From NCBI GenBank assembly GCA_030873995.1, contig GCA_030873995.1_4701.1: a stretch of DNA of 45,609 nt; one strand, 5' to 3'. The notes under the pieces are model-generated. The model did not search any database and had not been told where the DNA came from. It was given only the letters and a program-made list of their open reading frames with translations. Shown in pieces: positions 1,395-26,709 of the stretch. Positions within the stretch are counted from its first letter, which is position 1; each line of letters begins with the position of its first letter. Made by a program: the position numbers and the translations under genes. The DNA is from a phage.

Positions 1395-1581
1395 TAGTAT
1401 GAAGGCAACTCGTGCCGTTGAGGTAGCAGAAGCTATCTTTGAAACTTTATCTTGCGGCATGGAAGTGCCGTATACTTTATTGGCTGATGCAGAAGAACTT
1501 GGTCTTTCTGTAGAAGCTATCCAAGAGAAGGTTGAAGAACTCTATGGTACAGACGAAGAAGAAACCGACGATTTCATTTGA
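1366..1581 (+). CDS. hypothetical acidic protein (71 aa), C-terminus EEETDDFI
   Basis: ORF with GGGAG upstream; acidic tail ending in an aromatic residue. Confidence 0.4.
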   Translation: MTKMNQISFDSMKATRAVEVAEAIFETLSCGMEVPYTLLADAEELGLSVEAIQEKVEELYGTDEEETDDFI

Positions 1582-1585
1582 AGGG

Positions 1586-1714
1586 ATGGAGATGCTTGAG
1601 GTGATCCTCAGGCCTTCCTCACCAAAAGTAACTAAGACTCATGAAGAGTTATTAGTGGACGAAGTTAAACGTTACATTATGGATTGTGTCAAGGCACAAC
1701 TGGTAGTTCAATGA
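1586..1714 (+). CDS. small ORF (about 42 aa) whose stop overlaps the GNAT start (ATGA)
   Basis: ATG 1586 or 1592; stop TGA 1712-1714 overlaps ATG 1711; start uncertain. Confidence 0.25.
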   Translation: MEMLEVILRPSSPKVTKTHEELLVDEVKRYIMDCVKAQLVVQ

Positions 1715-2172
1715 TACGTCAAGCATCTTTCTTAGATATACCTGAGATTATTAATCTTGGTGACAAATATGTAGAAGAGGAAGTTAATGTTGTAGCACAC
1801 CACTCCCCTTCATGGAATGCAGAACAAAGCGCAGCAAACCTGTGTGCATCTCTTGTTCGAGATGATTTATTCTTATGGGTTGCTGTAGATGAGGGTAGTA
1901 TTGTAGGGTTCCTGTGGGCTGGATATCATGACTTAGCCCCTTGGACACAAGTGCGTGTTGCATCTGATATTCTTTTCTACATCGTACCAGAGAAGCGTGG
2001 CACTCTCTTAGGAATGAGGCTTATCAAAGCCTATAAGCAATGGGCTTTTGAGAAGGAATGTGCTGAAGTGAGGCTGTCTATTGCCTCTGGTATCAATGAA
2101 GAGCGTGTCGGGCGTATGTATGAGTTGTTAGGCTTCAAGACGTTCGGCACTGTGTATAACCTAAAACTTTAA
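1711..2172 (+). CDS. GNAT-family N-acetyltransferase (putative)
   Basis: 153 aa; acetyl-CoA motif-A-like PEKRGTLLGMRLI followed by conserved aromatic/acidic residues. Confidence 0.55.
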   Translation: MIRQASFLDIPEIINLGDKYVEEEVNVVAHHSPSWNAEQSAANLCASLVRDDLFLWVAVDEGSIVGFLWAGYHDLAPWTQVRVASDILFYIVPEKRGTLLGMRLIKAYKQWAFEKECAEVRLSIASGINEERVGRMYELLGFKTFGTVYNLKL

Positions 2173-2181
2173 GGAGGCAAT

Positions 2182-2391
2182 ATGGGTGTCGTGAAGAAGG
2201 CATTTAAAGCAATCGGTCTTGCATCTGAGACGCCGAAAATTGAGGCAGCTAAGGCTCCGGCGCAACAGCTAGAGCGTCAGCCTGAGACGGAAGCAGAAGA
2301 TGTAACGCTGGGTCAAGACGATGACACCACAACCACTTCTCGTGGTAAGCGTGGGCTTGTTCGTCCGGTTGCATCTAGTTTAGGAGTATAA
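2182..2391 (+). CDS. small virion protein, T7 gp6.7-like (putative)
   Basis: 69 aa, acidic with basic C-terminal SRGKRGLVRP; AAGGAGG RBS; directly upstream of portal. Confidence 0.45.
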   Translation: MGVVKKAFKAIGLASETPKIEAAKAPAQQLERQPETEAEDVTLGQDDDTTTTSRGKRGLVRPVASSLGV

Positions 2392-2392
2392 T

Positions 2393-3943
2393 ATGAGGCA
2401 AGACACCGACCTTGAATATGGTGGCAAGCGGTCTAAGATACCTAAGCTGTGGGAGAAGTTATCAACTAAGCGTAACCCATTTATGGATAGGGCTAAACAT
2501 TATGCCAGACTCACCTTGCCTTACCTTATGAATGAGGAGGGTGATAACAATACATCTCAAAACGGATGGCAAGGTGTCGGTGCTCAAGCCACTAACCACT
2601 TAGCTAACAAGTTAGCGCAAGTTCTCTTCCCTGCTCAACGCTCTTTCTTCCGAGTTGACTTGACAGCAAAAGGAGAGAAGATATTAAACAACAGAGGTCT
2701 TAAGAAGACCAAATTAGCTACGCTATTTGCTCAAGTAGAGACTGCTGCTATGAAGCAGTTAGAGCAGCGGCAGTTCCGCCCAGCGGTGGTGGAGTGCTTC
2801 AAGCATTTGATTGTTGCTGGCAACTGTATGTTGTACAAGCCAAGCAAGGGTGCAATCAGTGCGATACCGATGCATCACTATGTAGTTAATAGAGATGCCA
2901 ATGGTGAACTGCTGGATATTATCTTACTGCAAGAGAAGGCTCTCAAGACATTCGACCCTGCAACTCGCATGGCTATTGAAGTAGGCATGAAGGGTAAGAA
3001 GTGCAAAGACAGTGATAATGTAAAACTCTACACACACGCCAAGTATGAGGGTGAAGGTTTTTGGGAATTAAAGCAATCAGCAGATGATATTCCTATTGGT
3101 GAATCTAGCAGAATCAAGGCTGATAAACTCCCATTCATCCCTCTTACTTGGAAGAGGTCGTATGGGGAAGACTGGGGTCGCCCTCTTGCAGAGGATTATT
3201 CTGGGGATTTATTCGTAATCCAATTTCTGTCCGAAGCAGTTGCACGTGGCGCTGCTTTGATGTCCGACATTAAATACCTGATTCGTCCAGGTGCTCAGAC
3301 AGATGTAGACCATTTTGTTAACTCGGGAACGGGTGAAGTAATCACTGGCGTGGAAGAGGACATCCATATTGTACAATTAGGGAAGTATGCAGATCTAACA
3401 CCAATAAGTGCGGTGCTAGAAGTTTATACCCGCCGTATCGGCGTAGTCTTTATGATGGAGACTATGACGCGACGAGATGCAGAACGTGTAACTGCTGTAG
3501 AGATACAGCGAGATGCTCTTGAGATTGAGCAGAACATGGGTGGCGTGTATTCCCTCTTTGCTACGACCATGCAGACTCCCGTGGCTATGTGGGGTTTGCT
3601 TGATGCAGGTGACTCTTTCACTAGTGACCTAGTAGACCCTGTTATCATCACAGGCATTGAAGCGTTAGGTCGCATGGCAGAGTTGGATAAGCTGGCTAAC
3701 TTTGCTCAGTATATGGCATTACCTATGAGTTGGCCTGAGCCGGTACAGGCAGCAGTAAACTGGCCGGATTATATGGATTGGGTTCGTGGTCAGATCTCTG
3801 CTGAACTTCCATTCTTAAAGTCAGAAGAGCAGATGAAGCAAGAACAAGCACAGATGGCACAAGCACAGCAAGAGCAGATGCTTAATGAAGGAGTAGCTAA
3901 AGCTGTGCCGGGTGTCATTCAACAAGAACTTAAGGAGGCGTAA
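2393..3943 (+). CDS. portal (head-to-tail connector) protein
   Basis: 516 aa, T7 gp8-like size and position before scaffold and capsid; AGGAG RBS. Confidence 0.85.
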   Translation: MRQDTDLEYGGKRSKIPKLWEKLSTKRNPFMDRAKHYARLTLPYLMNEEGDNNTSQNGWQGVGAQATNHLANKLAQVLFPAQRSFFRVDLTAKGEKILNNRGLKKTKLATLFAQVETAAMKQLEQRQFRPAVVECFKHLIVAGNCMLYKPSKGAISAIPMHHYVVNRDANGELLDIILLQEKALKTFDPATRMAIEVGMKGKKCKDSDNVKLYTHAKYEGEGFWELKQSADDIPIGESSRIKADKLPFIPLTWKRSYGEDWGRPLAEDYSGDLFVIQFLSEAVARGAALMSDIKYLIRPGAQTDVDHFVNSGTGEVITGVEEDIHIVQLGKYADLTPISAVLEVYTRRIGVVFMMETMTRRDAERVTAVEIQRDALEIEQNMGGVYSLFATTMQTPVAMWGLLDAGDSFTSDLVDPVIITGIEALGRMAELDKLANFAQYMALPMSWPEPVQAAVNWPDYMDWVRGQISAELPFLKSEEQMKQEQAQMAQAQQEQMLNEGVAKAVPGVIQQELKEA

Positions 3944-4842
3944 TGTCTTTTGAAATTATTAATGAACCTGTAAGTCAGTCTGACGTTACTGAATCTAAGG
4001 AGGCTGCTGATGTTACTACTACCGACAACGATTCTACTGTTGATTCTTCTGGCAGCGATGTACAAGCTGACACAGGCAGTACAGATGTACAAGACACCAG
4101 AGGAGAAGATGCTGGAGAAGATGGAGCAGGAGCAGAGGCTGGTGGACAGGATGATAAATCTGAGCCAAATGACACCACAGATGCGCGGTTCTTCTTCGGT
4201 GAACAAGAAGTAGAGATTGAGATTCCTGATGACGTGTCAACTGCCTTGAAAGAGAAAGGTATTGATGCTATGCAGGTTGCCAAGGAGTTGTATGGCGAAG
4301 GTGGTAAATTTGAACTCAAGGAAGAGACAAAGCAGAAGTTGTATGATGCTTTTGGTAAGTTTGCTGTAGACGCCTACCTGAATGGCCTTAAGGCCTCCAA
4401 CGAAGCATTCATGCTCAAAGCTGAGACTCAAGCAAAAGAGGCGGAGGCTGCTGATGCTCAGCGCTTCACTGATATTGCATCTGAGGTTGGAGGGGAAGAA
4501 GGCTGGTCACGCCTTGAAGAGTGGGCGCTTGAAACCCTCTCGGATGAGGAGCTAACCGCGTTTAATGCTGTTATGGCCTCTGGCAACCAGTACCTGCAAC
4601 AATATGCTGTTCGTGAACTGGAAGGTCGCCGTAAGCAAGCGCAAGGGGACGATAAGCCGTCTCTGATTGAGCCATCAGCACCTGCTAAGGCTAATGAGGA
4701 TAACGGGCCATTAACTCGCGATCAGTATGTACATGCCATTGCAACTCTGAGCCAGAAGTATGGTAATGACCGTAAGGCTATGGCAGAAGCTCAGGCGAAA
4801 CTGGATGCCCGTCGCCGTGCTGGCATGGCTCGCGGTATCTAA
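3943..4842 (+). CDS. capsid assembly scaffolding protein
   Basis: 299 aa, very acidic, low-complexity N-terminus; start overlaps portal stop (TAATG); between portal and capsid. Confidence 0.75.
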   Translation: MSFEIINEPVSQSDVTESKEAADVTTTDNDSTVDSSGSDVQADTGSTDVQDTRGEDAGEDGAGAEAGGQDDKSEPNDTTDARFFFGEQEVEIEIPDDVSTALKEKGIDAMQVAKELYGEGGKFELKEETKQKLYDAFGKFAVDAYLNGLKASNEAFMLKAETQAKEAEAADAQRFTDIASEVGGEEGWSRLEEWALETLSDEELTAFNAVMASGNQYLQQYAVRELEGRRKQAQGDDKPSLIEPSAPAKANEDNGPLTRDQYVHAIATLSQKYGNDRKAMAEAQAKLDARRRAGMARGI

Positions 4843-4848
4843 TTCAGT

Positions 4849-4871
4849 ATTTACTGGACACTATAGAAGGG
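4849..4871 (+). promoter_or_regulatory. phage-RNAP promoter ATTTACTGGACACTATAGAAGGG (capsid promoter)
   Basis: Exact consensus; +1 G at 4866; followed by 5' hairpin GGGAGAAAAGTTCTCCC (4869..4885). Confidence 0.85.
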
Positions 4872-4921
4872 AGAAAAGTTCTCCCTAGTTATCAATTTGA
4901 TTTATAAGGAGATTATAACAC

Positions 4922-6130
4922 ATGTCTACACCGAATACTCTGACTAACGTTGCTGTATCTGCATCCGGTGAGGTTGACAGTCTTCTCATTGAGAAGTTTA
5001 ATGGTAAGGTGAATGAGCAGTACCTGAAAGGTGAGAACATTCTGTCTTACTTTGATGTACAAACTGTTACTGGCACTAACACAGTGAGCAACAAATATTT
5101 GGGCGAAACTGAGTTGCAGGTGCTAGCACCGGGTCAGTCTCCTAATGCCACCCCTACTCAGGCGGATAAAAACCAGTTGGTAATTGATACCACTGTCATT
5201 GCTCGTAACACTGTGGCTCACATCCACGATGTACAAGGTGACATCGATAGCCTGAAACCAAAACTGGCTATGAACCAAGCCAAGCAACTGAAACGTCTGG
5301 AAGACCAGATGGCAATTCAGCAGATGCTGTTAGGCGGTATTGCTAACACCAAGGCCAAACGTGACAAGCCGCGTGTTAAAGGGCATGGCTTCTCTATCAA
5401 CGTTAACGTAACTGAGAGTGAAGCACTGGCTAACCCTCAGTATGTTATGGCTGCGGTAGAGTATGCTCTGGAGCAACAGCTTGAGCAGGAAGTGGACATC
5501 TCTGATGTAGCTATCATGATGCCGTGGAAGTTCTTCAATGCTCTGCGTGATGCAGACCGAATTGTAGATAAGACTTACACTATCAGCCAGTCTGGTGCAA
5601 CCATTAATGGCTTCGTTCTCTCTTCTTATAACTGCCCTGTGATCCCGTCTAACCGGTTCCCTACCTTCGCTCAGAATCAGGCTCACCACCTGTTGTCTAA
5701 TGAAGATAACGGCTATCGTTATGACCCTATCGCAGAGATGAATGGTGCAGTTGCTGTTCTGTTCACTGCCGACGCACTGCTGGTGGGTCGTACCATTGAA
5801 GTGACTGGTGACATCTTCTATGAGAAGAAAGAGAAGACTTATTACATTGACACCTTCATGGCTGAGGGTGCAATCCCTGACCGTTGGGAAGCAGTGTCTG
5901 TAGTCACTACTAAGCGTAATGGTACTACTGGTGTCGCAGATGGAGAAGGCACAGACCACGCCACTGTTCTGTCCCGTGCGCAGCGTAAGGCTGTATATGT
6001 CAAGACCGCAGGTGCTGCGGCTGCATTCTCTGCTGCACCAGCAGGTATCCAAGCGGAAGACCTTGTAGCGGCGGTACGTGCTGTAATGGCAAATGACATC
6101 AAGCCGACTGCACTGAAACCTACTGAGTAA
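4922..6130 (+). CDS. major capsid protein
   Basis: 402 aa; own phage promoter with 5' hairpin upstream, strong hairpin terminator downstream; T7 gp10 position. Confidence 0.85.
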   Translation: MSTPNTLTNVAVSASGEVDSLLIEKFNGKVNEQYLKGENILSYFDVQTVTGTNTVSNKYLGETELQVLAPGQSPNATPTQADKNQLVIDTTVIARNTVAHIHDVQGDIDSLKPKLAMNQAKQLKRLEDQMAIQQMLLGGIANTKAKRDKPRVKGHGFSINVNVTESEALANPQYVMAAVEYALEQQLEQEVDISDVAIMMPWKFFNALRDADRIVDKTYTISQSGATINGFVLSSYNCPVIPSNRFPTFAQNQAHHLLSNEDNGYRYDPIAEMNGAVAVLFTADALLVGRTIEVTGDIFYEKKEKTYYIDTFMAEGAIPDRWEAVSVVTTKRNGTTGVADGEGTDHATVLSRAQRKAVYVKTAGAAAAFSAAPAGIQAEDLVAAVRAVMANDIKPTALKPTE

Positions 6131-13066: not shown

Positions 13067-16000
13067 ATGGTTGATAGTATTAACCAAAATTGGGTGGCGG
13101 TGACTCAACGCAAGTTACCGCCTACCTTCTCTCAAGTTGCTGAAGCAGAGCGTAAGGCCGAAGCACAGAGAGCTAATGACAAAGTATTCCAAACAGCCAT
13201 AGAGAGTGAGTGGGCTTTGTATGGTGGACAACGTGCCTATGAACGCCACACTACAGAGTTTGCTGAACAAGAAGGTTATGAAGTACCTGAATCAACTAAG
13301 GATGAACTATCCAAGTTGTATGGGTATGAAATAGCGCAAGACATAGTCAAGAATGTGAAGTCTCCAGAAGAGTTGCAATTCCGTATGTCTAATGCTGCTG
13401 CGGATAAAGACAGAGCAGACATCTTAGCACGTAATGGTTTCACAGGTTTCAGCGCACAGATTGCTGCTGGTATTCTTGACCCTGTAGGTTGGGCGGCTTC
13501 TCTAGTAGCTGCACCTGTAGCTGGTGCTGTCAAAGTAGGTCGTCTAGGTAGGATTATCAAGACGGCTGCCTTATCTGGTGCTGAAAATGCTGCATTAGAA
13601 GCTGTGCTTGCACAAGGTGATTACCAGCGAGGTGTCGATGATGTACTGGCTGCTGCCGGGTTTGGTATGATTATGGGCGGTACTATTGGCGCTGCAACTA
13701 GGGAACGCATAGCCAGTGCTGGTTCTCGTACAGCGGCAGAGAGAGCAGAGGCTGTATTTGATGACTTGGACACCGTAGTAAAAGGTGCTGATGAGTTTGA
13801 CTCGTCTGCTGCTCGTGCTGTACGTGAGGCCATGGAGTATGACGCGTATATGGCAGCACGTAATTATGAACCACTTCGTGCAAGAGAGGTGGATGCAGAT
13901 ATGGCAATTCTATCTCACACAGACAACTTGAAAGCCAATGCGTCGGTAAGGATGAGTGCTAGTGAGAAAGGACTACTGAAGAAACAGATACGCCAACTGG
14001 AAGCAGAAGCAGCCACACTTAAGGGGAAGAAGATAGATGCTGTAGCAGAGGCTGCCGCCGCTAAGGGTGCACCTAAATCTGCTGCGGACAGATTGGATTT
14101 AGATGTTCAGAAGAAAGCACTGGCACGTAGATTCGATGAACCACTTGCTGATTTACAAGCGCGTCTTGATGAGTTGAATGCCAAGTTATCTCGTGCGAAC
14201 AATGTAGGTAAGGCTAAGGAGGAGCTTAAGAGATTCTCATCGCTGTCCCGTGAAGATCAAATAAAGGAACTAGGTTTAGACGCACCAATGCGTAAGGTGG
14301 AGATGACCCGTGCTGTACGAGATGCAGTAGCTGCAATCCGTGCCGAACGTAAGAAGACACCTACCGAGATACATGCTGAACAAGCTGCAGAAGAGGTAAT
14401 CAAGCAAAAGGCAGATGACTCTATTGGTGCTAAACGTGTTGAAGGTTCAGAGATTGCAGGCGAGCAGTTTGACTTATCTAAAAACATGGAAGAACTTATG
14501 GATGACTTGGCACGAGAAGCATATCAGTCAGAGGTGCGGCCTATTAATCTTAAGGGTCTAGGTTCAGTGTCTTCTGTGATTCTTAACTCAGAGAATCCTG
14601 TGTTCCGAGGTCTAGGTCTTCGTCTGCTTGAAAACGCTCAAGGTGGTGCATACCAAGGTAAGACAGCTTCTATCTTATCAGATGTGTATGGCAACCTTAT
14701 TCGTCATGCAGAACGTAACAGGTACAATGATGGTTTCTCTCAATTCATCAAAGATAACAACCTACGTGCGGTAGATTATCTTAACCCTGCAACGACACGG
14801 GATTTCAATAATCAGATTTATACAGCAATTGTTCGTGGCATACCAGAAGATACACCTCGTGGTGTTAAACTGGCAGCAGAAGGTATCGCTGATAAACTCA
14901 AGAAAGCACTTGAGATTCGTAAGCAAGCAGGAGAGCATGGATTCGAAGATATACAATCTGCTAAGGATTACATCCCTGTTATCTATGACGGTATCAAGGT
15001 TACTGAGGCAGTTAACAAATTGGGGAGTAGTGAGGCTGTTATTCACTTACTATCCAAAGGTTACCAGACAGGTAAGTACAAACTTGGCAAGAAAGCTGCG
15101 GATGCCCTAGCAAAAGTACAGTACATTCGTGCATCGGACTCCACCCTCTCTAGTCGTGTTGCATTCGATAGGGTGGTATCCCAGCAGCAGCAGGCTCAAT
15201 TGATTGAGGATCTGAAGAAAGCAGGGGTACCAGACCATATCATTGATAATTTCATTGAAGGTACTGAATTAGCAGAAATGGCTGAATCGGTATCCAATCG
15301 AGCTAAAGCTAGTATGGGTATTAATACGCAAGCCGAATATGGCGGTTTGAAGGTGCAGGATTTGCTTAATACAAACGTAGGGGAGCTAGCGGAGAACTAC
15401 GGCAAAGAGGCAGCGGGTGGTGCTGCATTGGCTGCTATGGGTTTCCCTACTCGCCAATCTGTGCTGAACGCAATAGATGCCGCAGAACGCGCAGGCCGCA
15501 ATATGGCGGGGTCAAATGCTAAGGCAATCAAACAGCTTAGGTCTGAGGCAGAAATGCTCAGAGATGCCGTTAAGTTAATTTACGGCAACACTATCGACGC
15601 CGACCCTAACTCTGGAATTGTCAGGGGTACTCGACGTGTCCGTGAGATTACAGGGTTGTTACGATTAGGCCAAATGGGCTTCGCTCAGATACCTGAACTG
15701 GCACGTGCAATCTCTAAGATGGGACTAGGGACTGTGCTGAAGTCTGTACCTGCCACTAAGTTCTTACGTTCGAGAGCGGCTCGTAAAGGTGGCACTGCTC
15801 AGGGTGAGTTGCTTGAACCTGAACTGCGAGAAATGGAGGAACTCTTAGGTTATATCGGGGAGGATAACTGGCTCACAGGGTGGAATGTCCGTCATGATGA
15901 GTTCGGAGAAACTGCGGATAACCTAGGTAAGCTGTCTGCTATTATTGATAACGGATTAGCTATGGGTAGTAGAATCAACACAATACTATCTGGTTTTAAA

Positions 16001-16870
16001 GCAGTACAAGGTGGCTCAGAGAAGATTATAGCTCGCTCTATCAATAAGCGACTAAAGCAACATTTGATGGGGGAGCGACAGTTACCCAAAGCAGATCTTG
16101 AAGAAGTTGGCCTAAGTGAAGATGTCATGAAGAGACTTAAGCGTCACTTTGATGATAACCCAATGTACGCTGATTACAAAGGTGAAAAAGTTCGTATGAT
16201 GAACTTTGATGCTATGGAGCCAGACCTGAGAGAGACAGTGGGTGTTGCTGTGCGAAGAATGTCAGGACGTCTTATTCAGCGTAACTTCATAGGAGATGAA
16301 GGTATCTGGATGAATAAATGGTGGGGCAAGGCATTGACCCAGTTTAAGTCATTCTCTATTGTCTCTATTGAGAAACAGCTAATCCATGATTTACGAGGAG
16401 ATAAGATTCAGGCTGCACAGATCCTTGCATGGTCTACCTTACTAGGCTATGCATCTTATGCACTACAGATGCAGATGCAAGCAATTGGTAGGGAGGACAG
16501 AGACAAGTTCTTGAGGGATAAGTTCGAGACACAGAATATCGCTATGGGTGTCTTTAATAAACTCCCACAAGTTGCAGGCTTCGGTCTTGCTGGTGATGCT
16601 TTGGCAACATTTGGCCTAATGCCAGACTCTATGATGCAAGCGCCTGGACGTATGGGGTTCCGTCAGCAAGGGTTTGGTGATTTGGTAGCAGGTGCTGGTG
16701 TAATCAGTGATACAGTTAATTTGTCACAAGCACTAGTTAAGTACGCCAACGGAGATGATGATGTCTCTACTCGGCAGTTGGTGGACAAGGTTCGTCGCCT
16801 TGTTCCTTTGGCAAATACTATTGGTGTAGGTCAGATGACTAAAGCCAGTGTAGACTTATTGGAGGATTGA
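13067..16870 (+). CDS. internal virion (core/ejection) protein, gp16-like
   Basis: 1267 aa, position and size as T7 gp16; AGGAGG RBS. Confidence 0.7.
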   Translation: MVDSINQNWVAVTQRKLPPTFSQVAEAERKAEAQRANDKVFQTAIESEWALYGGQRAYERHTTEFAEQEGYEVPESTKDELSKLYGYEIAQDIVKNVKSPEELQFRMSNAAADKDRADILARNGFTGFSAQIAAGILDPVGWAASLVAAPVAGAVKVGRLGRIIKTAALSGAENAALEAVLAQGDYQRGVDDVLAAAGFGMIMGGTIGAATRERIASAGSRTAAERAEAVFDDLDTVVKGADEFDSSAARAVREAMEYDAYMAARNYEPLRAREVDADMAILSHTDNLKANASVRMSASEKGLLKKQIRQLEAEAATLKGKKIDAVAEAAAAKGAPKSAADRLDLDVQKKALARRFDEPLADLQARLDELNAKLSRANNVGKAKEELKRFSSLSREDQIKELGLDAPMRKVEMTRAVRDAVAAIRAERKKTPTEIHAEQAAEEVIKQKADDSIGAKRVEGSEIAGEQFDLSKNMEELMDDLAREAYQSEVRPINLKGLGSVSSVILNSENPVFRGLGLRLLENAQGGAYQGKTASILSDVYGNLIRHAERNRYNDGFSQFIKDNNLRAVDYLNPATTRDFNNQIYTAIVRGIPEDTPRGVKLAAEGIADKLKKALEIRKQAGEHGFEDIQSAKDYIPVIYDGIKVTEAVNKLGSSEAVIHLLSKGYQTGKYKLGKKAADALAKVQYIRASDSTLSSRVAFDRVVSQQQQAQLIEDLKKAGVPDHIIDNFIEGTELAEMAESVSNRAKASMGINTQAEYGGLKVQDLLNTNVGELAENYGKEAAGGAALAAMGFPTRQSVLNAIDAAERAGRNMAGSNAKAIKQLRSEAEMLRDAVKLIYGNTIDADPNSGIVRGTRRVREITGLLRLGQMGFAQIPELARAISKMGLGTVLKSVPATKFLRSRAARKGGTAQGELLEPELREMEELLGYIGEDNWLTGWNVRHDEFGETADNLGKLSAIIDNGLAMGSRINTILSGFKAVQGGSEKIIARSINKRLKQHLMGERQLPKADLEEVGLSEDVMKRLKRHFDDNPMYADYKGEKVRMMNFDAMEPDLRETVGVAVRRMSGRLIQRNFIGDEGIWMNKWWGKALTQFKSFSIVSIEKQLIHDLRGDKIQAAQILAWSTLLGYASYALQMQMQAIGREDRDKFLRDKFETQNIAMGVFNKLPQVAGFGLAGDALATFGLMPDSMMQAPGRMGFRQQGFGDLVAGAGVISDTVNLSQALVKYANGDDDVSTRQLVDKVRRLVPLANTIGVGQMTKASVDLLED

Positions 16871-17829
16871 TGAGTTACACATTCACTGAACATACAGCGA
16901 ATGGCACTCAAACTACTTTCCCCTTCCGGTTCGCTGGGAGAGACAAGGGGTACTTGAGGGCTTCTGATATTTTAGTTGAAGTAAGAAATGATGGCGTGTG
17001 GAACACGGTAAGTGGTTGGACACTTACAGGTACTAACCAGATAACCTTTAATGTACCGCCAGCGGCAAATACAAAACTTCGTATCAGGCGCGTTGTAGAG
17101 AAAGAAGAACCTTACGCCGAGTTTGACCGTGGTGTAACCTTGGATATGAAATCTCTCAATAACTCCTTTATACATCTTTTGGAAGTATCTCAGGAGCTAC
17201 TGGATGGTTTCTATCCAGATGGTTACTTTGTAAAGCAAGATGTATCTTGGGGTGGACATAAGATTACTGATTTGGCTGATGGCACAAATCCGGGAGATGC
17301 AGTAAATAAAGGACAGCTTGATTCCATCGACAAGAAGCATACAGATTGGAACGCCAAACAGGACATTGAGATTGCTGGTCTTAAAGCTGGTATGACTTCT
17401 GGTATTGCGCACAGAACTGTTCCTTGGTACACGATAGCCCAAGGTGGTGAGATTTCCGTAAAGCCCCCTTATGAATTTCAAGATGCACTAGTTTTCCTTA
17501 ATGGGGTATTGCAGCACCAAATTGTAGGCGCATACTCTATAAGCAACAACACTATCACTTTCGCAGAGCCGCTTGTGGCTGGTACAGAGGTGTATGTGTT
17601 GGTAGGTAGTCGTGTTGCTACATCTGAACCTAATATTCAGTTAGAGTTGAATTTTGACTTAGTAGAAGGCCAACAAGTAGTAAAGATTGGCTCTGCATTT
17701 AAGTATATTGAGGTTTATCTTGATGGACTATTACAACCTAAACTTACTTATCGGGTAGATGGTGACACTGTTACTTTCTCAGAGGGAGTGCCAGAATGCC
17801 GGATGACTGCTAAGATTATCACAGAATAA
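16870..17829 (+). CDS. tail fiber adaptor (gp17 N-terminal-domain-like)
   Basis: 320 aa resembling only the N-terminal tail-attachment domain of T7 gp17; no receptor-binding part. Confidence 0.7.
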   Translation: MSYTFTEHTANGTQTTFPFRFAGRDKGYLRASDILVEVRNDGVWNTVSGWTLTGTNQITFNVPPAANTKLRIRRVVEKEEPYAEFDRGVTLDMKSLNNSFIHLLEVSQELLDGFYPDGYFVKQDVSWGGHKITDLADGTNPGDAVNKGQLDSIDKKHTDWNAKQDIEIAGLKAGMTSGIAHRTVPWYTIAQGGEISVKPPYEFQDALVFLNGVLQHQIVGAYSISNNTITFAEPLVAGTEVYVLVGSRVATSEPNIQLELNFDLVEGQQVVKIGSAFKYIEVYLDGLLQPKLTYRVDGDTVTFSEGVPECRMTAKIITE

Positions 17830-18027: not shown

Positions 18028-18459
18028 ATGTACTCAGAAGTTGAAAGAGCAGGATACATCATAAGAGAAGATGGTGTTATCTTGAGCAAGAAGGGACAAC
18101 CGATGGTTGGTGCTATTCGTGAAAGAGGATACCGCACAGTAACATTAAGGATAGATAATAAATCCAAGACTTATAAAGTACATAGGTTGACTGCATGGAA
18201 GCATGTGCCGAACCCTCATAACTATAAGGTTGTTAACCATAAAGACCGCAACCCATCTAATTGCCATAAAGATAACCTAGAGTGGTGCACTCAACAGGAA
18301 AACACTATACATGCACACTATGGTTGTCTTGACATACAAGATAAAATAGATGAAGCCAAAGCATTAAGAAGCCAAGGCTGGTCTTATCCTAAAATCGGTA
18401 AATACTTTGGGTTAGACCATAAGACTGTTTGGTATTGGATTAATGGGAGAAGAACTTGA
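18028..18459 (+). CDS. HNH homing endonuclease
   Basis: 143 aa; motif HKDRNPSNCHKDNLEWCTQQEN; inserted between holin and terminase small subunit. Confidence 0.75.
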   Translation: MYSEVERAGYIIREDGVILSKKGQPMVGAIRERGYRTVTLRIDNKSKTYKVHRLTAWKHVPNPHNYKVVNHKDRNPSNCHKDNLEWCTQQENTIHAHYGCLDIQDKIDEAKALRSQGWSYPKIGKYFGLDHKTVWYWINGRRT

Positions 18460-20805: not shown

Positions 20806-21087
20806 ATGGCTAATGATTATAGTGATCAACCTTTAACTGGTCGATATGACCGTAAGCAGATTACACCGACCAGTGAGGCATTAATGCTCCCTGTTGTTAC
20901 AGAGGAGTCTATTACGAAGAAAGCCAATGTTATCAATGATGCAACCAAATCTGGTAAACAGAAAGCAGCAATGGTATGTCGTCCTGTAGGTGGCACTCTT
21001 GAGGTTGCCATTGCTACTGGTAGCAAAGAGGATGCAGATTGGTTGTCTGTTAAAATGGACAGCGTTGGTCTTATTACACCGGCTTAA
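20806..21087 (+). CDS. hypothetical protein, tandem paralog A
   Basis: 93 aa; shares SGKQK(A/G)AMV...(V/I)AIA(T/R)GS...D.W with 21105..21392; AAGGAG RBS. Confidence 0.5.
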   Translation: MANDYSDQPLTGRYDRKQITPTSEALMLPVVTEESITKKANVINDATKSGKQKAAMVCRPVGGTLEVAIATGSKEDADWLSVKMDSVGLITPA

Positions 21088-21104: not shown

Positions 21105-21392
21105 ATGTCTAAGTATGGCGATGCAGGTACGACTACTGGTCAGGTTTTTCGTGTAAAAGCAGTACAAACTATTGCAACTGCAATTCCTATGCCTATCGTG
21201 GCAGAAGCTGACCTTAAAAAGAAAGATCATCCAATTAATATTGAACACCTATCTGGTAAGCAGAAAGGTGCTATGGTGGTTGTAGATAAAGGAGATAGCC
21301 TTTATATTGCTATTGCGCGTGGCTCTGCACCAACTGACAAGTGGGATGCAACTACTATGGAGGTGACACCTGTCACTCCAGAAGGGGATTAA
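21105..21392 (+). CDS. hypothetical protein, tandem paralog B
   Basis: 95 aa, paralog of 20806..21087; AAAGGAG RBS. Confidence 0.5.
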   Translation: MSKYGDAGTTTGQVFRVKAVQTIATAIPMPIVAEADLKKKDHPINIEHLSGKQKGAMVVVDKGDSLYIAIARGSAPTDKWDATTMEVTPVTPEGD

Positions 21393-22284: not shown

Positions 22285-22313
22285 TACATAGCTTTATGTA
22301 TCAGTGTCTTACG

Positions 22314-22336
22314 ATTTACTGGACACTATAGAAGAG
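22314..22336 (+). promoter_or_regulatory. phage-RNAP promoter for the tailspike genes
   Basis: ATTTACTGGACACTATAGAAGAG exact consensus; +1 G at 22331. Confidence 0.85.
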
Positions 22337-22415
22337 GTAAGATAGCGCCGTTCTTTTGAGCGGCCTATTACTAGCCAATCTTCATAGGGAGGGTTGGAAA
22401 GTAATAGGAGATAGC

Positions 22416-24314
22416 ATGGCTAAATTAACCAAACCTAATACTGAAGGAATCTTGCATAAAGGACAATCTTTGTATGAGTACCTTGATGCGAGAGTTTTAA
22501 CATCAAAGCCGTTTGGTGCTGTAGGTGACGCCACTACTGATGATACGGAGGTTATAGCTGCTTCATTAAACTCTCAGAAAGCTGTCACAATCTCAGACGG
22601 TGTATTCTCTAGCTCTGGTATTAATAGTAATTACTGTAACTTAGACGGTAGAGGTAGTGGGGTGCTAAGTCACCGTTCCAGTGCAGGTAACTACTTAGTA
22701 TTTAACAATCCACGTACAGGTCGCTTAAGTAATATTACGGTAGAAAGTAATAAGGCGACTGATACAACTCAGGGACAGCAGGTATCTCTTGCTGGTGGAA
22801 GTGATGTTACTGTAAGTGACGTTAACTTCTCAAACGTTAAAGGTACTGGTTTCAGTTTAATCGCATACCCTAATGATGCGCCACCTGATGGACTTATGAT
22901 TAAAGGCATTCGAGGTAGCTATTCAGGCTATGCTACTAATAAGGCAGCCGGATGCGTACTTGCTGACTCCTCAGTTAACTCCCTCATAGATAACGTCATT
23001 GCTAAGAGCTACCCTCAGTTCGGAGCAGTAGAGTTGAAAGGTACAGCCAGTTACAACATAGTCAGTAATGTTATAGGGGCAGATTGCCAGCATGTAACTT
23101 ACAACGGCACTGTAGGGCCAATAGCCCCTTCTAATAACCTTATCAAGGGGGTGGTGGCTAATAACCCTAAGTATGCAGCGGTTGTTGCAGGCAAAGGAAG
23201 TACGAACTTAATCTCAGACGTGCTCGTAGATTACTCAACTTCTGATGCTAGGCAGGCTCATGGTGTTACAGTAGAGGGTTCTGATAACGTCATAAATAAT
23301 GTGCTTATGTCAGGATGTGATGGTACTAACTCTTTAGGACAAGGGCAGACTGCTACAATTGCACGCTTTAGAGGTACAGCTAATAACAACTATGCGTCTG
23401 TATTTCCTAGCTACAGTGCTACAGGTGTTATTACTTTCGAATCCGGCTCTACCCGTAACTTCGTAGAGGTAAAGCACCCTGGCAGGAGAAACGACCTTCT
23501 CAGTTCTGCTAGTACTATTGACGGTGCAGCTACTATTGACGGCACTAGTAATAGTAACGTAGTGCACGCACCTGCCTTAGGGCAGTACATAGGTAGTATG
23601 TCAGGTAGGTTCGAATGGCGGATTAAGTCCATGTCACTCCCTTCAGGTGTTCTTACTTCTGCTGATAAGTACAGAATGCTTGGAGATGGTGCTGTGTCAT
23701 TAGCTGTAGGTGGTGGCACTTCTTCTCAAGTTCGCCTATTTACTTCTGATGGTACTTCTCGGACAGTGTCCCTCACCAACGGTAACGTGCGTCTTTCTAC
23801 CAGTAGCACAGGCTTTTTGCAGTTAGGTGCTGATGCAATGACCCCAGACAGTACTGGTACATACGCATTAGGTTCCGCCAGTCGAGCATGGTCTGGCGGT
23901 TTTACTCAAGCAGCATTCACTGTTACCTCAGATGCTCGGTGTAAAACAGAACCTCTTACTATCTCAGATGCCTTACTAGATGCTTGGTCTGAAGTTGACT
24001 TTGTGCAGTTTCAGTATTTGGATCGTGTTGAGGAGAAGGGTGCAGACTCAGCTAGATGGCACTTTGGCATCATCGCTCAGCGAGCTAAGGAGGCCTTCGA
24101 ACGTCACGGTATAGATGCACATCGCTATGGCTTCTTGTGCTTCGACAGTTGGGATGATGTATACGAGGAAGATGCCAATGGCTCTCGTAAACTGATTACA
24201 CCAGCAGGTTCCCGCTACGGTATTCGTTACGAGGAAGTACTGATATTAGAGGCTGCGTTGATGCGGAGGACTATTAAGCGTATGCAGGAAGCACTAGCTT
24301 CCCTGCCTAAGTAA
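22416..24314 (+). CDS. tailspike 1 with C-terminal intramolecular chaperone (peptidase S74-like) domain
   Basis: 632 aa; N-terminal FGAVGDATTDDT beta-helix signature; C-terminal SDARCK...WHFGIIAQ autoproteolytic motif; promoter 22314 upstream. Confidence 0.75.
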   Translation: MAKLTKPNTEGILHKGQSLYEYLDARVLTSKPFGAVGDATTDDTEVIAASLNSQKAVTISDGVFSSSGINSNYCNLDGRGSGVLSHRSSAGNYLVFNNPRTGRLSNITVESNKATDTTQGQQVSLAGGSDVTVSDVNFSNVKGTGFSLIAYPNDAPPDGLMIKGIRGSYSGYATNKAAGCVLADSSVNSLIDNVIAKSYPQFGAVELKGTASYNIVSNVIGADCQHVTYNGTVGPIAPSNNLIKGVVANNPKYAAVVAGKGSTNLISDVLVDYSTSDARQAHGVTVEGSDNVINNVLMSGCDGTNSLGQGQTATIARFRGTANNNYASVFPSYSATGVITFESGSTRNFVEVKHPGRRNDLLSSASTIDGAATIDGTSNSNVVHAPALGQYIGSMSGRFEWRIKSMSLPSGVLTSADKYRMLGDGAVSLAVGGGTSSQVRLFTSDGTSRTVSLTNGNVRLSTSSTGFLQLGADAMTPDSTGTYALGSASRAWSGGFTQAAFTVTSDARCKTEPLTISDALLDAWSEVDFVQFQYLDRVEEKGADSARWHFGIIAQRAKEAFERHGIDAHRYGFLCFDSWDDVYEEDANGSRKLITPAGSRYGIRYEEVLILEAALMRRTIKRMQEALASLPK

Positions 24315-24398
24315 GCAACAGGCAGTGCGTAAGCACTGCTTTCACGCAACTTTTCTTAAAGGTTATCATGGTGGTAGCCTTTCAGAAAAGGAGGTTAC

Positions 24399-26582
24399 AT
24401 GCTTCAAAGATTAGGGGCAATGTTTGTTCGGTACAAAAATAAAGTAGGTAATGCTATCGAGCGTACACTACAAAGTAAATTACAGGATGTAGTAAGTGTA
24501 AAGGATTATGGCGCTATTGGTGATGGAGTATATCGTTCACTTGGTGCTAAATTTACCACGTTAAGTATGGCACAAGTAGTATACCCGCATGCGGAAAGTT
24601 TAACTCAATCGCAAGATTGGGCGGCTATTCAGGCTGCACTTAATTCTCACTCAAAAGTGTACATTCCAGCAGGTAAGTACATGCTATCTGATACCATTGA
24701 GATGCGCGGCGGTCAAACTCTGCAAGGTGACGGTATTGATTCTTGGGTTGCAGGTTATGCTGGGTTTGTAAAAGATAATCAAGGCACTCACCTCATAATG
24801 GTGGGAGATGGAAATAAGAAGTATACATTAGATCATGTATCTAACTTCGATGTAGAAGGTGGTGTCATAGACAACCCAGCGAAGAGTGATGCTTATACTG
24901 CCACTGCACCTTCCCCTAATTACTCATTTACTAACTTCACTAACGCTAACGCCTCTGGTGCACAACGTGCTACATTGAAACCTTTCAGCGTAGCATTACG
25001 TTGCACAGGTCACGGTGGTGTTTATCTTCGTGACTTCCGTATTGTGCCTAATCACAGAGGGCAAGAAGGTTATAAGGATGAGTTGTCAACTGCATTAGGG
25101 GACGCATGGGATGTAGGTATTTGGCTGGAGAATACATCTGACTCAGTGTTATCTTCTGTGCAAGCAGTTGGTTACTGGCGTATTGCAGGTGTTATGAAGA
25201 CTTGTATTCCACAAGAGGGTTCCTTTGTTGGTGGAGAGCGTGATAGGATATACAATTGCACATTACAAGGTTATCGTGGTTTCTTAGCACGTTCGCATGA
25301 TACTTACCAAGTAGAAGAAGTATCAGGTAACACTGTATCGATTAAGTGGTCTGCATCTCACACTTTCGAACCTTCTGGTAAAGTTCGTATCCAAGGGAAA
25401 GACCGTAGTTATACTAGCCTGTCTGTATCTGGTGACAAATTAGTCTTCAATGGTATTGACGATGTATCAGGTATTAATACCAATAGCTATGTGAGAGTTT
25501 CAGGGTCTTCATTCGGAATGTCTGCTACTCAACTAAATAACACATACATCGCTGCATTAAACCATCATGCTCGCTTGCCAGCAACCTCTAATCTTTTAGA
25601 TAATAGGTTTTCTACTTCGGCAGCTTGCTATGAAGTTGCAGGTGAACCAATTCGTGCCATAAAATTATCTAACTGTACTGTCATTACTTGGGATGACATC
25701 TTAGGTATGACTGGTGGTATTCGGGATTTCCAGACGACAGATACTTACTTCGAGTCTCAGCCTTTCCGTACTTCTGTGCAAGGCTTGGCAAGCACCACAC
25801 AACCTGCTGGTTCTCGCATGATTGCACTTCGTGGACGTCAAGGTTCTAAAACTACAGGATATCAAGCTATCGGTTGTACTTATGGGCCAGGTGTAGACTT
25901 AAGTCCTCGTTATGAAAGCGATGTATCTCGTTACACAACTTCAGGTGGTATGTTCAATCCAAGAGAAGATTTGAACACAACTAAGCAGTTACCAATGAGG
26001 CAAGACGCTACTGAGCTATCTTCTACTTCTGACTTATTCCTTACACATGCTGTAGGGCGGAAGGCCTATGTTGGCGCTACCTCTGGTGATGCAACGCTTC
26101 AATCTAGAACTGGATCATTGAATATCCAATCAGGACTTCGTGTACGGATTGGTGGCACTGATGGTAGTGGTTGGTATATTGCTGACAGTGCTAAGTTGAC
26201 ACCTACTGCTGACAATGCAAGGGCTTGTGGACAGCCTAATGGACGATGGACTGTTGTCTATGCTGTTAATGGTACAATCCAGACTTCTGATGGTAGATTC
26301 AAGGAAATCCTTGAGATTGAACAGGCAGAACTTGATGCTGGTCTTGAATTATCAGCAAACCTAATTAAGTATCGGTGGAATGGGGAAGATAAAATTCACT
26401 TTGGTTGCATAGCACAAGAAGTGATGTTAATACTGGAGAAACATGGCCTAGACCCATTACAATATGATATGGTTCAGTATGATGAGGAGGCAGACATCTT
26501 TGGGGTAAACTATGCTGAACTCAACAGCTTCTGTATTGCAGCATTATCGAGGAAGTTAAATGCCATTAATAAAATCAGTTAA
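24399..26582 (+). CDS. tailspike 2 with C-terminal intramolecular chaperone (peptidase S74-like) domain
   Basis: 727 aa; VKDYGAIGDG signature; C-terminal SDGRFKE...HFGCIAQE; AAGGAGG RBS. Confidence 0.75.
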   Translation: MLQRLGAMFVRYKNKVGNAIERTLQSKLQDVVSVKDYGAIGDGVYRSLGAKFTTLSMAQVVYPHAESLTQSQDWAAIQAALNSHSKVYIPAGKYMLSDTIEMRGGQTLQGDGIDSWVAGYAGFVKDNQGTHLIMVGDGNKKYTLDHVSNFDVEGGVIDNPAKSDAYTATAPSPNYSFTNFTNANASGAQRATLKPFSVALRCTGHGGVYLRDFRIVPNHRGQEGYKDELSTALGDAWDVGIWLENTSDSVLSSVQAVGYWRIAGVMKTCIPQEGSFVGGERDRIYNCTLQGYRGFLARSHDTYQVEEVSGNTVSIKWSASHTFEPSGKVRIQGKDRSYTSLSVSGDKLVFNGIDDVSGINTNSYVRVSGSSFGMSATQLNNTYIAALNHHARLPATSNLLDNRFSTSAACYEVAGEPIRAIKLSNCTVITWDDILGMTGGIRDFQTTDTYFESQPFRTSVQGLASTTQPAGSRMIALRGRQGSKTTGYQAIGCTYGPGVDLSPRYESDVSRYTTSGGMFNPREDLNTTKQLPMRQDATELSSTSDLFLTHAVGRKAYVGATSGDATLQSRTGSLNIQSGLRVRIGGTDGSGWYIADSAKLTPTADNARACGQPNGRWTVVYAVNGTIQTSDGRFKEILEIEQAELDAGLELSANLIKYRWNGEDKIHFGCIAQEVMLILEKHGLDPLQYDMVQYDEEADIFGVNYAELNSFCIAALSRKLNAINKIS

Positions 26583-26709
26583 GCAAAGTGCTGTACGCCA
26601 GAACACAGAAGAACTTATTCAATCAGGACGTAACCCTAAGCAGGCTTATGCCATTGCCAAGGATGTACAACGTCGTGCCTTGAAGAAACCTTCTGCATCT
26701 TCTGCGTAA
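26560..26709 (+). CDS. small basic ORF (49 aa) overlapping the tailspike 2 stop
   Basis: ATG 26560 with AGGAAG 4 nt upstream; not in the 60-aa track. Confidence 0.3.
   Translation: MPLIKSVKQSAVRQNTEELIQSGRNPKQAYAIAKDVQRRALKKPSASSA

Follow-up and report, generated by a model that had tools for sequence, protein, structure and literature searches.

The best described counterpart of the locus analysed here is found in coliphage K1-5, whose adaptor-plus-two-spikes design, K5 lyase and self-cleaving chaperone domain are textbook phage biology. On the K1-5 virion both spikes are bound to the adaptor gp37, the K5 lyase (gp46) through the heptapeptide MAKLTKP, which is reported to bind the middle of gp37, and the K1 endosialidase (gp47) through the undecapeptide MIQRLGSSLVK (Leiman 2007, as summarized in PMC6872550, Latka et al. 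2019). A second relative is Escherichia phage vB-Eco-KMB14 (vKMB14), described in 2024, whose authors report haloed plaques and a pair of tail spike genes; the first is a very close match to the K5 lyase of K1-5, and the second resembles a pectate lyase domain and is <43% identical to other spikes. The gene pair that concerns us is the same as that of vKMB14 and so has both a GenBank entry and a published discussion. It lies in a stretch of phage DNA of 45,609 nucleotides (GenBank assembly GCA_030873995.1, contig GCA_030873995.1_4701.1), referred to as the window, where the two genes are adjacent on the + strand: spike 1 (22416-24314, 632 aa), the precursor of a K5 capsule (heparosan) lyase, KflA, and spike 2 (24399-26582, 727 aa), a putative polysaccharide depolymerase and predicted beta-helix tailspike. 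We call their positions slot 1 and slot 2. It is highly probable that these proteins, together with a separately encoded adaptor, form the receptor-binding apparatus of a K1-5-like Vectrevirus, in which a K5 lyase spike is accompanied by a second beta-helix spike.

An open reading frame (ORF) map and DNA searches identify the window as the genome, circularly permuted, of a Vectrevirus, a K1-5-like podovirus (Autographiviridae, Molineuxvirinae). Along its whole length the segment 22300-26700 matches the DNA of vB-Eco-KMB14 (OR424384) at 98.3% identity, and about half of it, namely the first spike gene with its flanks, has matches of 90-99% in more than 100 further phage records, among them K1-5, K5, AAPEc6 and VEc3. 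The nearest relative of the structural half (1-22000) is phage LL11 (95.4%), so that the window is a mosaic of an LL11-like backbone and a KMB14-like spike cassette. In KMB14 (WPK27915/WPK27916) spike 1 differs at 15 of 632 residues and spike 2, there labelled 'tail fibers protein', at 4 of 727; the remainder of the window is closer to LL11 than to KMB14 and contains an additional HNH gene (18028-18459). With K1-5 the window shares genus, gene order, promoter, intergenic spacer and gene 48, an 87% identical adaptor, a 98% identical K5 lyase, the same heptapeptide, a similar undecapeptide, and Peptidase_S74 domains in both spikes. The difference lies in slot 2, where K1-5 has a beta-propeller K1 endosialidase and this phage a beta-helix spike, with DNA homology lost between 24415 and 26560.

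Spike 1, which the earlier note on this DNA had left unrecognized as a K5 lyase, is by its sequence KflA itself. It is identical to K1-5 gp46, annotated 'K5 lyase', at 622 of 632 residues (98%), and phrog_14895 matches it from end to end. The crystallized K5A lyase KflA (PDB 2X3H), from which it differs only by a few point substitutions, aligns to aa 1-505 (E=0) and so reaches the Ser of the SDARCK motif described below. The DNA of the region is 98% identical to Y10025, annotated promoter included. We place the start at the ATG at 22416 because K1-5 gp46 likewise begins MAKLTKP; an in-frame TTG at 22356, listed upstream by the ORF finder, was rejected for the same reason. Spike 1 would act as a beta-helical trimer that cleaves the heparosan of the K5 capsule by beta-elimination, the activity reported in the literature for proteins 98% identical to it; lyase activity, cleavage and adaptor binding are taken throughout from work on such near-identical proteins, and the present analysis itself gives the sequence identities and domains, the predicted fold, the junctions and the docking peptides. 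A recently solved 843-aa 'tail spike protein' (PDB 9VVR, 18 chains) matches the K5-lyase body and chaperone domain of spike 1 almost residue for residue from its position 242 on, behind about 240 additional N-terminal residues. The K5 lyase therefore also occurs fused to another N-terminal module, rather than attached by heptapeptide and adaptor.

Besides the KMB14 protein, spike 2 has one close relative, the slot-2 protein of Vectrevirus LF31P3 (11 of 727 residues differ; 98.5% identity). The next full-length relatives are at 53% (a metagenomic contig) and then at about 42%; the latter include phage YZ1 and many Escherichia coli prophage proteins, which carry other attachment modules (the P22 head-binding domain PF09008, PF18668, and forms of 991 and 1153 aa). 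In an exhaustive search of representatives of clusters at 50% identity, 170 had E<=1e-30, so that the enzymatic body of spike 2 belongs to a large, mobile family; its members occur in phages and in E. coli prophages and carry attachment modules of at least four kinds. Sequence matches to solved structures were obtained for the first ~100 residues of the body, with the Pseudomonas O-antigen spikes of LKA1 (gp49) and phi297, and for the last ~135 residues, with stalk-plus-chaperone structures; the central body could be placed by fold comparison only. A model from a 16-sequence alignment had a mean predicted local distance difference test score (pLDDT) of 44.6 and was discarded. The AlphaFold model from a 65-sequence alignment, drawn mostly from the search of 50%-cluster representatives, has a pLDDT of 90.2 and a predicted template modelling score (pTM) of 0.79. 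With Foldseek its top matches are LKA1 gp49 (E 3.5e-11) and phi297 (E 2.7e-9), followed at lower ranks by GH110 galactosidases, the T5 pb1 fibre C-terminus with its chaperone, the Sf6 spike, AlgE4 and CBA120 TSP3; among viral models the spike 2 model matches spikes labelled 'pectate lyase superfamily' or 'Peptidase S74 domain-containing'. The beta-helix fold that the earlier note had proposed for both proteins is thus borne out, for spike 1 by the alignment with 2X3H and for spike 2 by the model and its Foldseek matches. In contrast to the O-antigen lyase spikes LKA1 gp49 and phi297 gp61 (4RU4, 4RU5), with which sequence similarity is limited to the first ~100 helix residues, spike 2 has a docking peptide, a stalk and a chaperone.

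The motif from which the fold had been read is not diagnostic of it. Both spikes were said to begin with (F/Y)GA(V/I)GDG, taken as a pectate-lyase-type beta-helix signature. This describes spike 2 (YGAIGDG, aa 37-43, nt 24507-24527), but spike 1 has FGAVGDA (aa 33-39, nt 22512-22532), the counterpart of FGAAGDA in K1-5 gp46, and the beta-propeller endosialidase gp47 has KDFGAKGDG at the equivalent position. As a beta-helix signature FGAxGD(G/A) is hence ruled out; FGAxGDG marks a shared N-terminal element of slot-2 spikes, not a beta-helix. In gp47 the motif falls in an N-terminal segment (aa 32-59) that also gives a weak Pect-lyase_RHGA_epim match. The C-terminal pair of motifs is present in both proteins as described, with SDARCK (aa 505-510, nt 23928-23945) and HFGIIAQ (aa 549-555, nt 24060-24080) in spike 1 and SDGRFK (aa 630-635, nt 26286-26303) and HFGCIAQ (aa 667-673, nt 26397-26417) in spike 2. 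A six-frame scan of the whole window located these motifs at no place other than these six sites, all on the + strand.

For spike 2 we infer enzymatic activity, substrate class and cleavage. Twelve polar or aromatic residues (R214, Y225, W237, D238, W260, R261, Q290, R298, H389, E412, R419, E452) are kept in 92-100% of the 65 aligned members, at identities to spike 2 down to 26%, a pattern that fits a catalytic and sugar-binding site. They could not be mapped onto any characterized active site; in LKA1 gp49 the proposed catalytic residues are Asp497, His499 and Thr464, with Arg329 and Arg459. The presence of four arginines among the twelve hints at an acidic polysaccharide as the target. Most likely spike 2 would depolymerize a second E. 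coli surface polysaccharide, either an acidic K capsule or an O antigen, and the phage would thereby use hosts with either coat. Between these we lean slightly towards a capsule.

Should spike 2 instead act on the O antigen of lipopolysaccharide, the phage would combine K5 capsule specificity with specificity for one O serogroup, and this we regard as a serious possibility, if somewhat short of even. Relatives of at least 95% identity to the YZ1 receptor-binding protein, which in turn shares 43% identity with spike 2, are found in prophages of O102, O6, O1 and O153 strains, and with several O serogroups represented that branch was judged not to be serogroup-specific. The characterized Vectrevirus spikes, moreover, act on the K1 and K5 capsules. 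The host of LF31_P3, LF31, is a B2, ST73 strain (ST, sequence type) of serotype O6:H1 (Picard-collection preprint supplements), but vKMB14 did not plate on CFT073 (O6:K2), according to its authors, whose paper gives no serotypes. This speaks only weakly against O6, because capsules can mask the O antigen. We suggest, tentatively and as something possible rather than probable, that spike 2 is the founding characterizable member of a large unstudied family of beta-helix depolymerases with a conserved Arg/Tyr/Asp/His/Glu site, recognizing a polysaccharide of extraintestinal pathogenic E. coli (ExPEC) to which no phage enzyme has been assigned.

Both spikes end in the domain Peptidase_S74 (PF13884, 'chaperone of endosialidase'), with 54.4 bits for spike 1 (E 1.5e-14, aa 505-565) and 32.4 bits for spike 2 (E 1.2e-7, aa 630-684), above the gathering cut-off of 22 bits. 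Together with the conserved motif columns this supports the assignment of a C-terminal, presumptively autoproteolytic, chaperone domain to each, as the earlier note had it. The C-terminal motif matches thus exceed coincidence. The bodies of the two proteins are unrelated in sequence, whereas their C-termini are detectably homologous, at 30% identity over 122 aa (E 5e-10). From Pfam and PDB matches the domain of spike 1 comprises S505-K632 (128 aa, 23928..24311, + strand), which aligns (aa 505-632) with the solved chaperone domains of GA-1 gp12 (3GUD), endoNF (3GW6) and T5 pb1 (4UW8); that of spike 2, to which the model also contributes, comprises S630-S727 (98 aa, 26286..26579, + strand). The matches of spike 2 to Kp7 gp51, T5 pb1 and endoNF begin about 38 aa ahead of the Ser, and its model has a pLDDT of 81-96 over aa 640-720. 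Columns T-S-D, K, H.G..Q and G.D are invariant in spikes 1 and 2, K1-5 gp47 and two spike 2 relatives. As in the endosialidase-type chaperones (MEROPS S74), both spikes have the Ser/Lys pair, H.G..Q and the preceding stalk, the Lys standing five residues on from the Ser in S-D-x-R-x-K (S505/K510 and S630/K635); the chaperone of spike 2 is compact and differs from that of the K5 lyase by the lack of a ~30-residue insertion.

The precursors would fold as trimers with the help of this domain, which would then cleave itself off at the conserved Ser by means of a Ser-Lys dyad, at T504|S505 in spike 1 and at T629|S630 in spike 2 (plus or minus one residue). Cleavage at T504|S505 takes the computed mass of spike 1 from 66.7 to 52.0 kDa, which matches the 67 kDa tabulated for K1-5 ORF46 and the 52 kDa of its mature form; for spike 2 a change from 79.1 to 67.9 + 11.2 kDa is predicted. 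The domain of spike 2 might alternatively stay on the mature spike, uncleaved, as a folding chaperone or adhesin module. It is short (98 aa), its Pfam score is 32 bits against 54 for spike 1, and among the 65 family members the Ser column holds S in 51 and the Lys column K in 45, from which it follows that some relatives have probably lost cleavage. In spike 2 itself, however, T-S-D-G-R-F-K and H-F-G-x-I-A-Q are retained and line up with their counterparts in the K5 lyase and the K1-5 endosialidase, and the segment ahead of its Ser matches the pre-cleavage stalks of T5 pb1, endoNF and Kp7 gp51, so that we consider an uncleaved domain unlikely. That spike 2 is binding-only or vestigial, like the truncated slot-1 protein of K1E, with the K5 lyase alone setting host range, is highly improbable: although no catalytic residues could be mapped onto a characterized enzyme, its ORF is intact and full length and recurs at 98.5-99.5% identity in two further phages, isolated independently, the twelve residues persist across the family as given above, LF31_P3 pairs it with a slot-1 spike other than the K5 lyase, and the host ranges of vKMB14 and vKMB47 differ mainly through slot 2.

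The homologue of the K1-5 adaptor gp37 is encoded at 16870..17829 on the + strand (319 aa from the ATG at 16870). Its N-terminus matches Pfam Phage_T7_tail (aa 3-151, E 1.6e-12), and its overall identity to gp37 is 87%. From aa ~120 on, through the C-terminal two thirds, the two proteins hardly differ; the N-terminal third is the part that diverges from K1-5. These results agree with the proposal that the gp17-type N-terminal domain is supplied by a separate adaptor, given then as 320 aa. The spikes were further said to lack N-terminal attachment. A Pfam scan detected no Phage_T7_tail domain in either of them, so this stands for a gp17-type domain, but short conserved docking peptides are present: MAKLTKP in spike 1 (22416..22436, + strand), identical to that of K1-5 gp46, and MLQRLGAMFVR in spike 2 (24399..24431, + strand), which aligns with MIQRLGSSLVK of gp47 at 6 of 11 identical positions, the others being conservative. 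The start MLQRL is common to the slot-2 proteins of K5 and LL11, and the unrelated slot-1 spike of LF31P3 starts MARLTRP. By this arrangement the T7 gp17-like N-terminal domain of the adaptor would attach to the tail and its C-terminal part would offer two docking sites, spike 1 docking by MAKLTKP and spike 2 by MLQRLGAMFVR. The near-identical C-terminal part of the adaptor and the docking peptides suggest that the virion carries both spikes. Since the phage is a relative of K1-5, the dual-spike logic of K1-5 applies literally, and the dual specificity foreseen in the earlier note is upheld, with the part of spike 2 in it a predicted one.

Several points weigh against this account. For spike 2, neither an experiment nor a close characterized homologue assigns substrate or activity, the nearest relatives beyond KMB14 and LF31P3 being the 53% and ~42% proteins; sequence and profile searches of the PDB detected no solved homologue for aa ~125-590; the model is of a monomer, with the pre-cleavage stalk (aa 531-640) at a pLDDT of 65-81; and the chaperone domain is the short variant (98 versus 128 aa), for which cleavage is a prediction. 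Finally, that both spikes are present on every virion is something we infer for this phage.

The spike genes would be transcribed from a phage promoter of their own. An SP6/K1-5-type phage RNA polymerase promoter, ATTTACTGGACACTATAGAAGAG, lies ahead of the cassette (22314..22336, + strand), and the segment 22281-22330 is identical at 50 of 50 positions to the feature 'promoter, K5 lyase' in Y10025. Allowing up to three mismatches, seven copies of the consensus ATTTACYGGACACTATAGAAGAG are found in the whole window, at 4849, 22314, 33202, 33386, 35502, 40052 and 41661, all on the + strand, with 0 expected by chance. The string TTACTAGCCAATCTTCATAGGGAG was considered as a promoter and dropped; it occurs once in the window, and the phage promoter is at 22314-22336. 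Scans for sigma-70 promoters (13 found, 10.6 expected) and terminators (5 against 3.7) were at chance level, and we used neither, except for the intergenic hairpin.

This hairpin (24322-24339) lies, together with the ribosome-binding site AAGGAGG, in the 84-nt spacer between the spike genes (24315..24398, + strand), which forms the left homology arm of slot 2. Between the window, K1-5, K5 and LL11 the spacer hardly varies, but the four genes downstream of it differ; in LL11 the hairpin is annotated as a terminator. Homology to K1-5 by blastn is unbroken through the K5 lyase and the spacer, stops at 24415, 17 nt into spike 2, and resumes exactly at 26560 with the start of the small, conserved gene 48 (26560..26709, + strand, 49 aa; phrog_2423, E 2.6e-22), the right homology arm. 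Gene 48 overlaps the last 23 nt of spike 2, which is why K1-5 gp47 and spike 2 both end in NKIS. The position of slot 2 between two conserved homology arms would allow cassette exchange.

LF31P3 has the same spike 2 in slot 2 and a different, non-K5-lyase spike in slot 1, and in LL11 the K5 lyase is accompanied by a Beta_helix spike of 570 aa without an S74 domain; from these combinations we conclude that slots 1 and 2 assort independently. Such assortment was reportedly proposed for K1-5, K5 and K1E by Scholl and colleagues in 2001. The slot-1 protein of LF31P3 (1463-3415, with slot 2 at 3501-5684 of the same sequence) is about 630 aa long, and by eye, with no Pfam scan made, no SDxRxK/HFGxIAQ motif is visible in its translation. 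In the more than 100 phage records mentioned above, the K5 lyase, its promoter and the downstream spacer (22300-24415) recur at 90-99% and slot 2 varies; these records are of Vectrevirus, plus some labelled as Kayfunavirus, Citrobacter, Salmonella, Klebsiella, Raoultella or Proteus phages.

Elsewhere in the window, the additional gene at 18028-18459 (+ strand) specifies a free-standing HNH endonuclease (Pfam HNH_3 and HTH_23) between the holin and small-terminase genes. By blastn the segment 18003-18444 has no counterpart in K1-5 or KMB14; in LL11 the small terminase directly follows the holin, and an HNH gene is located elsewhere. It is probably a homing-endonuclease insertion. Two tandem ORFs (20806-21087 and 21105-21392, + strand; 93 and 95 aa) have similar sequence patterns and no Pfam match; their equivalents in LL11 and KMB14 bear the annotation 'acetyl-CoA acetyltransferase' or 'most likely a duplication region', which looks doubtful. 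The gene for the 1267-aa internal virion protein (13067-16870, + strand) has only short blastn matches of 77-78% to K1-5 and KMB14 and is covered by the 95% match to LL11. Taken with the divergence of the adaptor N-terminus, this indicates that the tail-proximal proteins travel with the backbone and the spikes separately.

The window is a further natural example of slot-wise spike exchange in Vectreviruses, useful for host-range engineering, and spike 2 offers a well-defined and foldable candidate for a depolymerase directed at uropathogenic E. coli. If the tentative view of spike 2 as the first member of its family open to characterization is true, its target might be, for example, a non-K1/K5 group 2 or 3 capsule of ST131 or ST73 strains, and the protein could define a new polysaccharide-lyase or glycoside-hydrolase family.

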